Of a stretch of DNA of 32,000 nucleotides, positions 16,435 through 21,544 are shown piece after piece. The position numbers and the translations under genes are program-made. How positions within the stretch are numbered: position 1 is the stretch's first letter; each line of letters opens with the position of its first letter. The stretch is from assembly GCF_000008565.1 (NCBI RefSeq), contig NC_001263.1, forward strand, positions 2,069,834-2,101,833. Reading direction: 5' to 3'. Below the pieces are notes generated by a model. The model was not told the origin of the DNA and ran no database searches. It was given only the letters and a program-made list of their open reading frames with translations. This DNA comes from Deinococcus radiodurans R1 = ATCC 13939 = DSM 20539 (GTDB lineage: Bacteria > Deinococcota > Deinococci > Deinococcales > Deinococcaceae).

Positions 16435-17769
<1,335 letters not shown>

Positions 17770-17841
17770 ATCCTCGCCATGATACGTCGGTGAGTGCCGT
17801 GTGTACGAGGCTCAAGATGGGGATGACTGACTACGAGGCCG

Positions 17842-18924
17842 TCAGGCGAGGCCGAGAAACGCCCGGTACCGCCCCAACTCTTTCTCCACCCCCGATGCCA
17901 AAGTCTTCGTTTGCCGAACGCCGGGCAGGAAGTGTAGGTCGGCCTTCAGCTCACCGCCCTCTCCCTTCAGATTGGCCCACCCCACCGCCTTTTCCCCGCT
18001 GAAGACCGGCAGCGCGTAGTACCCGAACTGCCGTTTCGCGGCGGGCGTATACGCCTCCAGCTTGTACGCCCAGCCGTGCAGGTGTTCAAAGCGGCGACGG
18101 TCCCACACCAGCGGGTCGAAGGGACCGACGATGCGGACGCCTCTGGGCGCGGGCACATCTTCAAGATTCCACTCGGCGGGCCACACGTAGCGCACGCCGT
18201 CCACCACCGCGCCCGCCAGTTCTTCACGGGCCGCCCGCTTGAACGCCGCGCGCAGTTCGCCGTGCAGGTGCGGAAAGCCGAAGCGCGAGAGGGTGACGAG
18301 GTAGCCCAAACTCGCCTCGGGCAGCGGGCCGTACAGCGCAGCGAGCAGGTGCACCGCACCGCGCAGCCGCTCCGCATCAGGAAGGGGGTCGCGGCGCAAC
18401 TCGGCCAGATGGGGAGCCGGGCCGTAAAGCCGCACGCCGGACACCCGGCGGGTCACGCGGGCCTCGCCCCGGTAGTGCAGCGCGTCCAGGGCGCGAGTGG
18501 TGGCGCTGCTCTGGCCGCCCCAGGCGTTGCCGACGCGGCCCCGGCCAATCAAGGTGTCGGCCTCGCGGGGGTGGAGTTCTGCGCGCTCACGCAGCAGCCC
18601 CCGCACCTCGTCCAGAAGTTCCGGGTGCTCGCGCTCGATGCGGGTCACGCCGACCTCGCGCGGGTGCAGCAGCTTTTGCGTCTCACGCGGGAAAAAGCCG
18701 TAGTTGGGGAGCATGTCCTCTTCGGCGTCGAGCGCGGGGTAAAGGCGTTCGAGGTCGCCCGCGCGGTAGCCCCGCACCCGCCCCATCAGCGTCAAATCCT
18801 GCGCCCTGGCCGGGGCGCGGATGGGGTCGGCTTGCAGGAACCCGAGGGCGCTGAGCGCCGTTTGCACGTCCGGCTGCGGGGTGAGGGTACGGAAGGCGGC
18901 GGCGCGCAGGGTGGCGAGGTTCAT
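17842..18924 (-). CDS. YcaQ/AlkZ-like (HTH_42, DUF1006) winged-helix DNA glycosylase homologue
   Basis: N-terminal GFLQADPIR (Q-phi-D motif). The C-terminal GPFDPLVWDRRRFEHLHGWAYKLEAYTPAAKRQFGYYALP closely resembles E. coli YcaQ as I recall it. ATG 18924 overlaps the upstream stop (ATGA). Confidence 0.8.
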   Translation of the reverse strand: MNLATLRAAAFRTLTPQPDVQTALSALGFLQADPIRAPARAQDLTLMGRVRGYRAGDLERLYPALDAEEDMLPNYGFFPRETQKLLHPREVGVTRIEREHPELLDEVRGLLRERAELHPREADTLIGRGRVGNAWGGQSSATTRALDALHYRGEARVTRRVSGVRLYGPAPHLAELRRDPLPDAERLRGAVHLLAALYGPLPEASLGYLVTLSRFGFPHLHGELRAAFKRAAREELAGAVVDGVRYVWPAEWNLEDVPAPRGVRIVGPFDPLVWDRRRFEHLHGWAYKLEAYTPAAKRQFGYYALPVFSGEKAVGWANLKGEGGELKADLHFLPGVRQTKTLASGVEKELGRYRAFLGLA

Positions 18925-19499
18925 GGATGAGGGTTGCTGGACGACAGGGCGAGAGCTTCGGCGTGCCCCATGATGGCCCGCGCCGCTTCCTCCGGGGAAA
19001 GCCGCGAAGTGTCCAGCGTCAACATGCCTTCCGGCACAGGCAAGACGCCTTTGCTGTCCAGCACGGCCTGCAACGTGTCGGGGTCGGTCAACTTCAGGCG
19101 GGCACGGCGCTCCGGCAGCGGCATCCGGCGCCGCAGTTCTTCGGTGGGGCAGGTCAGGAAGACCGGGACGAAAGTGGCCCCCCGCTGCTCAGCCAGCGCC
19201 GCGAACTTGCCTATCATCTCGGCCTCACCGGGCAGGTCTGCCAGGTAGTTGGTGAAAATATGGCTGACCCCCGCCGGAGCCGCCGCCACCGCCTCCAGCA
19301 GCAGCGCCCGCAGGCGGCGGGTAAAAGACCAGACCTCGGCGGGCGGGTCGCCCTGGCCCGTGAAGCCGAACGCTGCGAACATCGGGTCATTGATGATGTG
19401 GTTGTCGAGCAGCGCCGCGCCGGTCAGCCGCGTGAGTTCCAGCCCCACGGTGCGTTTGCCGCTGCCGGGCGGCCCGATGAGATAGAAGAGACGGCTCAC
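18921..19499 (-). CDS. P-loop NTPase, small kinase-like (AAA_33/CPT-like) protein
   Basis: Walker A LIGPPGSGKRT lies 9 residues from the N-terminus. An Arg-rich lid-like segment ELRRRMPLPERRARLK is present. GTG 19499 overlaps the mpg stop (GTGA). Confidence 0.7.
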   Translation of the reverse strand: MSRLFYLIGPPGSGKRTVGLELTRLTGAALLDNHIINDPMFAAFGFTGQGDPPAEVWSFTRRLRALLLEAVAAAPAGVSHIFTNYLADLPGEAEMIGKFAALAEQRGATFVPVFLTCPTEELRRRMPLPERRARLKLTDPDTLQAVLDSKGVLPVPEGMLTLDTSRLSPEEAARAIMGHAEALALSSSNPHP

Positions 19500-20068
19500 G
19501 GCGCGGCCAGCTCCATGCTCGGCTGCGCGGGCGACACCCAGCCGTTGCCCCGAATCAGAAAGCGCCAGGGCAGGTTGCGCCCTTCGCGGATGCCTACGCG
19601 GGCGGTGACGGTGACTTCATCGTCGGCCAGCGGAGTCTCCGGCGCGAGCAGGTGCAGTTCGGGGCTGTTCACCGGGCGGTGGCTGATCTGCATGGGGTCA
19701 AGGCCGAGCGCGTAGACCAGTTTCGCCGGGCCGCTCGTCAGGTCGCGCTGGCGGGTCACAGGGCGGTAATCGAGCATTTTGCCCGCCCCTTCCAGCGGCT
19801 CAAGCGCCCGGATCAGCACGCTGGCGCTCACCCCTTCCTGACGGCAGGCGACCTGCAACAGCGGGTGCCCGTGCGCGAACCAGAACAGCCAGTGACCGGG
19901 CGCAATCGCCATTTCCGCGCTGCGGGCGGCGTGAAAGCGCCCGGCGGTGCAGGCCGGGTCACGCGGGCAGTCGTAGGCTTCCACTTCCACCACTCGCCCG
20001 CTCAGGCGGTGGCCGTCCGGGGTTACGCGGACCAGCGTGCCTCCGAGCAGCTCGCGGGCAAGGCGCAC
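19496..20068 (-). CDS. mpg: 3-methyladenine (alkylpurine) DNA glycosylase, AAG/Mpg family; true start probably upstream of 20068
   Basis: ARELLGGTLVRV...GRVVEVEAY...SGPAKL...RVGI is the Mpg/AAG pattern. The first canonical start is GTG 20068. The frame stays open to 20119 and encodes more Mpg-like N-terminal sequence; see the finding at 20066-20135. Confidence 0.85.
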   Translation of the reverse strand: MRLARELLGGTLVRVTPDGHRLSGRVVEVEAYDCPRDPACTAGRFHAARSAEMAIAPGHWLFWFAHGHPLLQVACRQEGVSASVLIRALEPLEGAGKMLDYRPVTRQRDLTSGPAKLVYALGLDPMQISHRPVNSPELHLLAPETPLADDEVTVTARVGIREGRNLPWRFLIRGNGWVSPAQPSMELAAP

Positions 20069-20119
20069 CGGGTTGGCGTCGAAGTGGGCGGGATTTAGGG
20101 GTGGAAGCGGCGGCAGGAC

Positions 20120-20530
20120 TCAGCCCTCAGTGCTGGCGCCGGGGCGGGTGGTCCACTCGGGGGCGGGCTCAATCACGTCGGCGGGCGCTTTGCCGCGCTC
20201 CAGGCCGCTGTTTTGCTCGGTCTGCACCGGGCGCAGCGCCATGCCTTCCGCGCACTCGATCTGGCAGGAGAGCCGCGCCTCACCGAGCAGGCCCTTGTCC
20301 TGCAACTTGTCGTGTTCGGCCAGCGTCATGGCGTCGGGTTCGCCTTCCGTGAAGACCACCCGGCAGGTCGTGCATTTGGCGACGCCGCCGCAGCGGTGCA
20401 GGATGTCCACCCCGCCGCGCTCCAGTGCCGTGACCAGCCGCTCGCCCGAGTGGGCCTGAATCTCGCCGTAGCCCTCCACGGCAATGGTGACGGGCTGGCC
20501 TTGCTGCTGGGCAATCAGGGGTTCGGTCAT
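20120..20530 (-). CDS. 2Fe-2S ferredoxin
   Basis: The Cys pattern C-x5-C-x2-C...C (HRCGGVAKCTTCRV ... LSCQI) sits in a ferredoxin-sized beta-grasp protein. ATG 20530 sits 6 nt after TATCCT. Confidence 0.8.
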   Translation of the reverse strand: MTEPLIAQQQGQPVTIAVEGYGEIQAHSGERLVTALERGGVDILHRCGGVAKCTTCRVVFTEGEPDAMTLAEHDKLQDKGLLGEARLSCQIECAEGMALRPVQTEQNSGLERGKAPADVIEPAPEWTTRPGASTEG

Positions 20531-20536
20531 GCGGTC

Positions 20537-20551
20537 AGGATACGGGATACT
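20537..20551. promoter_or_regulatory. Back-to-back -10-like boxes in a 27-bp divergent intergenic region
   Basis: AGGATACGGGATACT reads as GATACT (20546-20551) on the plus strand, 6 nt before ATG 20558. On the minus strand it reads as TATCCT (20542-20537), 6 nt before ATG 20530. It is also a tandem GGATAC x2. Confidence 0.5.
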
Positions 20552-20557
20552 CCGGGC

Positions 20558-21544
20558 ATGACCTCATCGTCCGCCGCTCCCCTCGTTCCGCTGCTGGGCA
20601 GCCTGCACGCGCTGCAAGTGCCGATTCCTTACCCCATGAAGACGGTCACGGTCCTGATCGACGCTCCGGCGCGCGGGCCACTGACCCTGATCGACTGCGC
20701 GCTCGACACCCCGGAGGCGCGCGCCGCCATCGAGGACGGGCTCGCGCAACTCGGGCGGCACTGGTCCGACATCGACCGCCTCATCGTGACGCACCACCAC
20801 CCCGACCATTACGGCCTCGCGGGCGTCATCGAGGAACGCAGCGGCGCGCGCGTGCAGATGCTCGACGTGGAAATCGGGCGCGGCGAGCGCTACTGGCACA
20901 TGCTGAGCGAGTGGCTGCCGGGGCACCGCAAGCACATGCGCGACCACGGGCTGCCCGAGGCATCGGTGGAGGGCATCCGCGCCGAGAACCCGCGCGTGCA
21001 CCCCGCCAGCCGGGTGGAACCGCTGCGCGAGGGACAAAGCGTGTCGCTCGCCGGGCACGAGTGGGAAGTGCTGTGGCTCCCCGGTCACGCCGACGGGCAC
21101 CTCGGCCTGTGGAACGAGGAAGAAAGCCTGCTGATTGCCGGCGACGCCATCTTGCCGCGCATCAGTCCCAACATCGGCCTGTACGCCTACACCCGGCCCG
21201 ACCCCCTCGGCGACTACCTGCAAACGCTGGGCAAGCTGGAAGCCCTGAACCCGCGCCGGGCCGTCGTCGGGCACCACGGGCCGGTCATGGAGGGCGTGCA
21301 GGCCCGCGCCCGTGAGCTGCGCGGGCACCACCACGAGCGGCTGGACTTTATCGGCGCCGAGGCTCGCCGTGAGGGCCGCAGCGCCTACGACCTGTCGCTG
21401 GCGATGTTTCCGCGCGACCTCGACGAAGGCGGGCGCCGCTTTGCTCTGGCCGAGACGCTCGCGCACCTCGAACACCTGCGGCTGCTCGGGCAACTCGCCC
21501 GCACCTGGGACGAGGGGGCGCAGGTGTGGCGGTATCACGCTTGA
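20558..21544 (+). CDS. MBL-fold metallo-hydrolase
   Basis: THHHPDHYG (HxHxDH) motif. The ORF-track start at 20213 would run antisense through the ferredoxin gene, so ATG 20558 is chosen. Confidence 0.85.
   Translation: MTSSSAAPLVPLLGSLHALQVPIPYPMKTVTVLIDAPARGPLTLIDCALDTPEARAAIEDGLAQLGRHWSDIDRLIVTHHHPDHYGLAGVIEERSGARVQMLDVEIGRGERYWHMLSEWLPGHRKHMRDHGLPEASVEGIRAENPRVHPASRVEPLREGQSVSLAGHEWEVLWLPGHADGHLGLWNEEESLLIAGDAILPRISPNIGLYAYTRPDPLGDYLQTLGKLEALNPRRAVVGHHGPVMEGVQARARELRGHHHERLDFIGAEARREGRSAYDLSLAMFPRDLDEGGRRFALAETLAHLEHLRLLGQLARTWDEGAQVWRYHA

Follow-up and report, generated by a model that had tools for sequence, protein, structure and literature searches.

A probable mosaic operon joins Mpg-like and YcaQ-like DNA glycosylase genes in Deinococcus radiodurans

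Within the AlkZ/HTH_42 DNA glycosylases, the YcaQ-like (YQL) clade is defined by a Q-phi-D motif, corresponding to Gln45 and Asp47 in Escherichia coli YcaQ (PMC9040887; PMC7367128). The YQL members characterized so far act on 7-methylguanine, which they excise, and on nitrogen-mustard crosslinks, which they unhook (PMC7367128, PMC9040887). E. coli ycaQ shares a putative operon of four genes with msbA and lpxK (PMC7367128). Here, we describe a related locus in a 32,000-nucleotide (nt) stretch of chromosome 1 of Deinococcus radiodurans R1 (NC_001263.1, positions 2,069,834 to 2,101,833), hereafter the window. Four consecutive minus-strand genes, DR_2075 to DR_2072, encode a 2Fe-2S ferredoxin, an Mpg/AAG-family glycosylase, a stand-alone P-loop kinase-like protein and an AlkZ-like glycosylase. 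An earlier note on this DNA had presented the quartet as a wired four-gene system. We favor another reading, to which we give a probability of about 60%: a single leaderless transcript, started at the ferredoxin promoter, would co-express two alkylpurine glycosylases that feed base excision repair (BER), the ferredoxin and the kinase-like protein being passengers. The block would then be a lineage-specific mosaic operon of known families, assembled piecemeal, and not a new four-part repair system.

The open reading frame (ORF) list and the family scans agree on the four genes, their order and their strand, and the family calls of the earlier note were right (Fer2, Pur_DNA_glyco, AAA_33 and PF06224). 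DR_2072 aligns over residues 25-356 with positions 2-329 of the 329 positions of PF06224 (E 1.6e-48; 166.5 bits against a cut-off of 25.9). Residues Q31-A32-D33 are invariant in 12 homologues and align with the QID of PDB 9zd6, which was the sole PDB relative returned by sequence search (E 4e-27). DR_2072 also carries the LQADP and FDP..WDR..YTP..KR..GY motifs that had been read from the sequence. Hence, it resembles E. coli YcaQ and the YQL proteins in having both a full-length PF06224 domain and an invariant Q-phi-D motif. Because of this motif, we assign DR_2072 to the YQL clade and predict that it is a YcaQ-like crosslink and 7-methylguanine glycosylase. By gene calls, without formal cluster prediction, there are no biosynthetic-cluster-type genes among its neighbors within 10 kb. 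In the literature that we searched, we found no paper linking Deinococcus with YcaQ or AlkZ and no biochemical account of a Deinococcus homologue, and the part on Deinococcus repair omits DR_2072. The gene is still labeled ‘hypothetical’ in the 2026 literature, and the NCBI annotation of its homologues already gives the family name.

DR_2074 is a homologue of human AAG and of bacterial Mpg over the whole domain (Pur_DNA_glyco, PF02245: E 1.6e-45, 155.2 bits against a cut-off of 27; TIGR00567: 120.6 bits against 116.35; alignment with human AAG: E 6e-22). Equivalents of the catalytic residues Glu125 and Tyr127 are kept (VEVEAY, against VETEAY in the human enzyme), and this Glu and this Tyr are invariant in alignment A4. 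On the other hand, DR_2074 differs from human AAG by its plug residue, by Gln and Thr changes and by a predicted non-canonical start codon. Human Tyr162, the intercalating residue that fills the space vacated by the flipped base, is replaced by His (FAHG-H) throughout the Deinococcus clade to which DR_2074 belongs, named Mpg-A; in the same clade, Asn169 is replaced by Gln and His136 by Thr (human AAG numbering; alignment A4). Both the Mpg-B paralogues and the Mpg of the actinobacterial genus Flexivirga retain the Tyr plug, and the tandem Mpg-B paralogue of D. reticulitermitis and D. soli keeps both Tyr and Asn. The residue changes of Mpg-A may alter lesion recognition. The DR_2074 protein was found in proteomics, at 0.18-fold in a PprI comparison (PMC12197293).

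The start of mpg had been placed at GTG 20068. This does not fit the conserved Mpg N-terminus, PAHFDANPV, which is encoded upstream of that codon and at which relatives begin with ATG or TTG. Between PAHFDANPV and the ferredoxin stop, D. radiodurans has no ATG, GTG or TTG codon, and the gene calls of the NCBI assemblies give a 206-residue Mpg starting at CTG 20116, 3 nt past the ferredoxin stop. CTG 20116 would thus be the sole plausible mpg start in the interval 20069-20122, which implies either a non-canonical start or termination-reinitiation. If CTG is the true start, the coupling of mpg to the ferredoxin gene is tighter than in the version first proposed, in which the ferredoxin stop (20122-20120) lies 51 nt upstream of GTG 20068 in the same frame; both the distance and the frame were confirmed by the sequence. 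The shared frame is a one-in-three coincidence. A ferredoxin-Mpg fusion, or read-through of the TGA, was considered and rejected: the two closest relatives of D. radiodurans (loci L002 and L003) have at this place about 70 nt of spacer that contains in-frame stops, and the two genes of D. reticulitermitis overlap out of frame. A terminator between ferredoxin and mpg in relatives was rejected as well, the hairpin of L002 being no better than shuffled sequences (z -0.96).

The remaining junctions are those recorded in the earlier note. The mpg stop overlaps the start of the P-loop gene in GTGA (19499-19496), and the stop of the P-loop gene overlaps the start of the AlkZ-like gene in ATGA (18924-18921). 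The leaderless-type -10 box noted before the first gene is found as TATCCT at -12 to -7 of the ferredoxin ATG, and the starts of the mpg, P-loop and AlkZ-like genes have no TANNNT at a distance of 45 nt or less. The terminator scan bore out that no hairpin followed by a T-run lies within the block: it gave no credible terminator there, only a weak 5-bp motif within mpg (19898-19886). In the region as a whole, terminator-like sites are at chance level (6, against 4.1 ± 2.2 expected), and on the minus strand a good hairpin followed by a T-run first appears beyond the downstream gene glmM (16418-16390). All four genes have a GC content at third codon positions (GC3) of 0.84-0.88. A foreign composition of the P-loop gene was considered and rejected, as its GC3 equals that of the neighboring genes. 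From this layout, co-transcription of the four genes from the ferredoxin promoter appears plausible, and the block is probably one real operon of D. radiodurans.

The reading that we favor may be detailed as follows. The functional core would be the Mpg > YcaQ-like pair, two monofunctional alkylpurine glycosylases whose family substrates are complementary: 3-methyladenine, hypoxanthine and ethenoadenine for Mpg/AAG, against 7-methylguanine and N7-linked interstrand crosslinks for YQL. The ferredoxin gene would contribute the leaderless promoter; mpg would be translated from the CTG codon behind GAGGG, in a manner coupled to the ferredoxin stop, and the P-loop and AlkZ-like genes would be translated via GTGA and ATGA coupling. 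By this joint expression, both glycosylases would supply apurinic/apyrimidinic sites to BER. The ferredoxin and P-loop genes would be passengers specific to the lineage, acquired at a junction prone to insertions.

A survey centered on the P-loop gene covered 77 genome loci (one genome per species) and 69 metagenome loci, and look-ups centered on Mpg and on the AlkZ-like protein extended the comparison to ten Deinococcus lineages. The full quartet is confined to D. radiodurans strains plus L002 and L003, the latter two with complete flanking synteny. In L003 (Deinococcus sp. VB343), an 860-nt insert separates mpg from the P-loop gene. In D. reticulitermitis, the order is Fer2 > Mpg-B > Mpg-A > AlkZ-like, and the starts overlap. 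The pair Mpg > AlkZ-like is separated by non-coding spacers of 26 nt in D. phoenicis, 27 nt in D. geothermalis and 392 nt in D. terrestris; in the last of these spacers, no remnant of the P-loop gene was found. The mpg and AlkZ-like genes are non-adjacent in D. deserti, D. soli, D. psychrotolerans, D. grandis and D. maricopensis. Hence, the Mpg > AlkZ-like pair occurs in five of the ten lineages, and this favors a connection between the two enzymes. Outside the D. radiodurans group, a ferredoxin gene in front of mpg was seen in D. reticulitermitis only, and the P-loop loci of the other Deinococcus species in the 77-locus scan have no mpg, AlkZ-like or ferredoxin gene nearby. A lack of conservation of the adjacency in related genomes had been put forward in the earlier note as a way to refute its four-gene system. 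Conservation holds for the glycosylase pair and fails for the ferredoxin and the P-loop gene, so that only the pairing of the two glycosylases is retained from that proposal.

The Mpg/AlkZ-like junction is therefore insertion-prone and has repeatedly accepted insertions. The comparative neighborhoods indicate that the block grew around an old AlkZ-like/APH/glmM neighborhood (APH, a phosphotransferase family), and the likely order of assembly would be mpg in one sub-lineage, the ferredoxin gene later and the P-loop gene last. As side observations on the spacers, the insert of L003 (6156-7000) has a weak coding signal and no Pfam match, and the spacer of D. terrestris (L163, 4610-5000) is G-rich and laden with inverted repeats.

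Several candidates for hidden members of the block were examined and set aside. The proteins encoded upstream of mpg in D. soli, D. deserti and D. psychrotolerans have no similarity to the ferredoxin. The AAA_18 protein encoded near the AlkZ-like gene of D. maricopensis agrees with the P-loop protein at Walker A only, and the 237-residue protein encoded upstream of the AlkZ-like gene of D. grandis was rejected as a divergent Mpg. Outside Deinococcus, a relative of DR_2072 in Abditibacteriota (55% identity) has no mpg nearby.

Passenger status of the P-loop gene was then weighed against what can be said of its product. DR_2073 has the Walker A motif GPPGSGKRT, in which G9, G14, K15 and T17 are invariant, and further conserved residues are D32-N33-H34, R125, R131 and K136. 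Its match to AAA_33 is barely past the cut-off (E 2e-6), and AAA_33 by itself is non-discriminating. With the AlphaFold2 model (predicted local distance difference test, pLDDT, 91.4) as query, Foldseek gave 317 PDB matches at E<=0.001, of which the best 50 are all kinases or putative kinases. The top match is 2RHM (putative kinase Caur_3907), followed by adenosine 5'-phosphosulfate (APS), gluconate, shikimate, adenylate and CMP kinases, and TM-scores to kinases of the nucleoside monophosphate (NMP) type are 0.60-0.66. DR_2073 shares with 2RHM, APS kinase, gluconokinase and shikimate kinase the Walker A motif, an Asp after strand 2 and basic LID-like residues; the similarity to these small kinases is, however, in fold only. 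None of the curated family thresholds was reached (AroL, 18.8 bits against a cut-off of 161), and among 23 members of the DR_2073 family, SKI was weakly matched by eight and CPT by one. Thus, the family and structure check suggested for this protein returned a generic small-molecule kinase fold and no curated family. On the basis of the model, DR_2073 is a predicted P-loop NTPase with an NMP-kinase-like fold and most likely a small-molecule kinase, unrelated to DNA ends.

The family of DR_2073 comprises 446 representative clusters at E<=1e-30, nearly all of them stand-alone proteins of about 190 residues. In the few members that exceed this length, the additional part is a flavodoxin-like fold, a CxxCxxCC domain or a second copy, and no fusion to a repair domain, a phosphatase or a ligase was found among them. 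In the rare fusions P0398 and P0425, the partner of the P-loop domain is a flavodoxin-like domain (FMN reductase type) or a metal-chelating CxxCxxCC domain. In other Deinococcus species, the recurrent neighbors of the P-loop gene encode OsmC-like, Hydrolase_4 (alpha/beta hydrolase) and acylphosphatase proteins. Together, the fusions and the OsmC neighbors hint at action on a small molecule in a redox or stress context. Orthologues at 65-79% identity (D. taklimakanensis, D. piscis) stand in contexts without mpg or an AlkZ-like gene, and the nearest relatives outside Deinococcus have heterogeneous neighbors, from which repair genes are absent. In Deinococcus the P-loop gene is frequently duplicated in tandem, and such paralogues occur in several species (L006, L008, L010, L015, L017), the second copy being 34-49% identical to DR_2073.

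A role similar to that of polynucleotide kinase (PNK), as suggested in the earlier note, was rejected: no PNK is found among the best 50 of the 317 Foldseek matches, there is no end-healing fusion, and neither structure nor family lends support. Moreover, BER initiated by a monofunctional glycosylase yields no 5'-OH end that would need a kinase.

One observation gives the P-loop protein a possible role beside Mpg. In Flexivirga (three species and one metagenome contig), the genes run argH > P-loop > mpg > tyrS, and the gap is 23 nt. The Flexivirga P-loop protein is 43-45% identical to DR_2073, and the Flexivirga Mpg is 35-37% identical to Deinococcus Mpg; this low identity argues that the P-loop/mpg adjacency arose independently and was not transferred as a unit. 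The longer run, argF-argH-P-loop-mpg-tyrS, places the P-loop gene directly upstream of the native actinobacterial mpg (L018-L020, L091). DR_2073 could accordingly be a true partner of Mpg, as a regulator, in the salvage or detoxification of the excised base, or as a processing factor, and would have been recruited to mpg twice independently. The adjacency does occur in two unrelated lineages, as mpg > P-loop in the radiodurans group and as P-loop > mpg in Flexivirga, and we roughly estimate the chance of a second adjacency among some tens of independent contexts at a few per cent. Nevertheless, none of the approximately 140 other loci of the P-loop family has mpg, an AlkZ-like gene or a ferredoxin gene nearby. 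The Mpg- and AlkZ-centered neighborhoods inspected outside the radiodurans group have no P-loop gene beside the glycosylases, and the generic kinase fold, the lack of repair-domain fusions in the family and a BER pathway without a kinase step all argue in the same direction. We consider a recruited Mpg partner unlikely. We are equally doubtful of its extension, in which the P-loop family would be tied to Mpg and the CTG-start Mpg with its His plug would form, with DR_2073 and the YcaQ-like enzyme, a specialized alkylation/crosslink module.

The first gene of the block was weighed in the same way. DR_2075 has a Fer2 domain (E 1.6e-9; 38 bits against a cut-off of 21), and E. coli Fdx (1I7H), the PDB entry that matches it best, aligns with it at the C-x5-C-x2-C...C ligands, all four Cys included. 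It shares this domain and these ligands with E. coli Fdx and with ferredoxins of the adrenodoxin/putidaredoxin type. It differs from E. coli Fdx by a C-terminal tail of about 40 residues and by the divergent pairing of its gene with that of a metallo-beta-lactamase (MBL)-fold hydrolase, and it stays under the cut-off of the fdx_isc equivalog (34.8 bits against 132).

If ferredoxin and kinase were both mechanistically required, the block would be a dedicated four-gene alkylation/crosslink repair system. The tight translational coupling and the single promoter-like element would be expected of such a system, as would the ferredoxin > Mpg coupling that is also seen in D. reticulitermitis. Against it, the quartet is limited to one species group, and the content of the slot between the two glycosylase genes differs from species to species; in D. 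geothermalis, D. phoenicis and D. terrestris, the two glycosylase genes stand together and neither the ferredoxin nor the kinase gene accompanies them. In addition, we know of no Fe-S or redox requirement in the Mpg and YcaQ families. There are also zero PADLOC hits, for which reason a role in anti-phage defense was likewise rejected. Even with the complementary chemistry of the two glycosylases (PMC7367128) in its favor, a required four-part system seems to us very improbable.

The favored reading, a glycosylase pair with two passengers, has its own weak points, which we gather here. The mpg-AlkZ-like adjacency is inherited together with unrelated neighbors (the deacetylase Polysacc_deac, APH and glmM) in the same lineages, so that conservation alone is no proof of selection, and the adjacency may derive from a single ancestral event. 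The independent P-loop/mpg adjacency of Flexivirga is awkward for pure passenger status. DR_2074 has a non-canonical plug residue, and it gave no expression in E. coli (PMC5128194). When DdrO had been depleted for 16 h, DR2072 was repressed 3.8-fold and ranked within the 50 genes with the strongest repression; it is the only one of the four genes in this top 50, which does not settle co-regulation (PMC12934235). Part of this evidence would suit the absence of any functional link, Mpg > AlkZ-like being synteny inherited without selection and the overlaps reflecting dense packing in a compact genome. Indeed, the adjacency is broken in five other lineages, neither gene being lost. In the region, 4-nt overlaps also join unrelated neighbors, at Asp23/NusB and at PadR and its neighbor; as such overlaps are common here, tight coupling is not special to the four-gene block. 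Similarly, Streptomyces YQL neighborhoods are conserved yet functionally incoherent (PMC9040887). On the other side, we estimate at about 1 in 500 to 1,000 the chance that a random neighbor of an alkylpurine glycosylase gene would encode another such enzyme, and D. reticulitermitis has Mpg-B, Mpg-A and AlkZ-like genes in an overlapping row. In view of both, inherited synteny without a functional link appears rather unlikely, and we retain co-expression of the two glycosylases as our reading of the block.

The coordinates of the four genes, of the associated motifs and of the flanking genes are given in Table 1. We take the DR numbering from the position of the block beside ligA (DR_2069) and from the papers cited here.

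Table 1 Features of the four-gene block and of its borders (positions in the window).
Feature	Position	Strand	Basis or remark
2Fe-2S ferredoxin, adrenodoxin/ISC (iron-sulfur cluster) type, 136 residues, DR_2075, first gene	20120..20530	-	Fer2
Mpg/AAG-family 3-methyladenine DNA glycosylase, DR_2074	19496..20116	-	206 residues from CTG 20116, 190 residues from GTG 20068
Stand-alone P-loop kinase-like protein, 192 residues, DR_2073	18921..19499	-	AAA_33
Predicted YcaQ-like (YQL) AlkZ-like/HTH_42 DNA glycosylase, 360 residues, DR_2072	17842..18924	-	PF06224
-10-like box TATCCT, leaderless-type, 6 nt before the ferredoxin ATG	20537..20542	-	sequence read
Shine-Dalgarno-like GAGGG in the last ferredoxin codons, 7 nt before CTG 20116	20124..20128	-	putative ribosome-binding site
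-10-like TATCAT, 9 nt upstream of the glmM ATG and inside the 72-nt spacer; delimits the block on its downstream side	17779..17784	-	alignment A2
glmM, DR_2071, housekeeping, downstream	16435..17769	-	TIGR01455, E 6e-195
MBL-fold hydrolase gene, divergent from the ferredoxin gene	20558..21544	+	Lactamase_B, E 2e-28

At the downstream border, glmM follows the AlkZ-like gene by 72 nt on the shared strand, with no intervening terminator. A TAT(C/G)AT box stands before glmM and keeps its position in six Deinococcus species, including those in which the upstream gene is on the opposite strand (alignment A2). Because it has its own conserved -10-like box, glmM is probably its own transcription unit; read-through into it is possible. 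Most of the Deinococcus lineages examined have glmM next in order. A convergent APH-family phosphotransferase gene comes after the AlkZ-like gene in every examined Deinococcus lineage except D. radiodurans (L002, 8629-9693; L087-L089; L160-L163). D. radiodurans lacks this gene, and only the 72-nt spacer (17770-17841) stands between the AlkZ-like gene and glmM. Like E. coli ycaQ, DR_2072 would belong to a functionally mixed operon beside cell-envelope genes, represented in D. radiodurans by glmM. LpxK of the E. coli operon is itself a P-loop kinase, a curious parallel to DR_2073.

At the upstream border, the ferredoxin ATG (20530, minus strand) and the MBL ATG (20558, plus strand) are 27 nt apart, with back-to-back -10-like boxes (20528-20560). 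The MBL gene adjoins and diverges from the ferredoxin gene in L002 and L003 too. In locus L087, it is also upstream and divergent, with a PEGA gene intervening.

This locus calls for caution, since overlaps and a shared promoter can mimic a system: across ten lineages, only one of the three junctions of the block has evolutionary depth. Accordingly, we regard it as a useful lead for Deinococcus repair work and not as a new system. The presence in one probable operon of DR_2072 and of DR_2074, whose active site is divergent, would be a lead on how a model extremophile tolerates alkylation and crosslinks.

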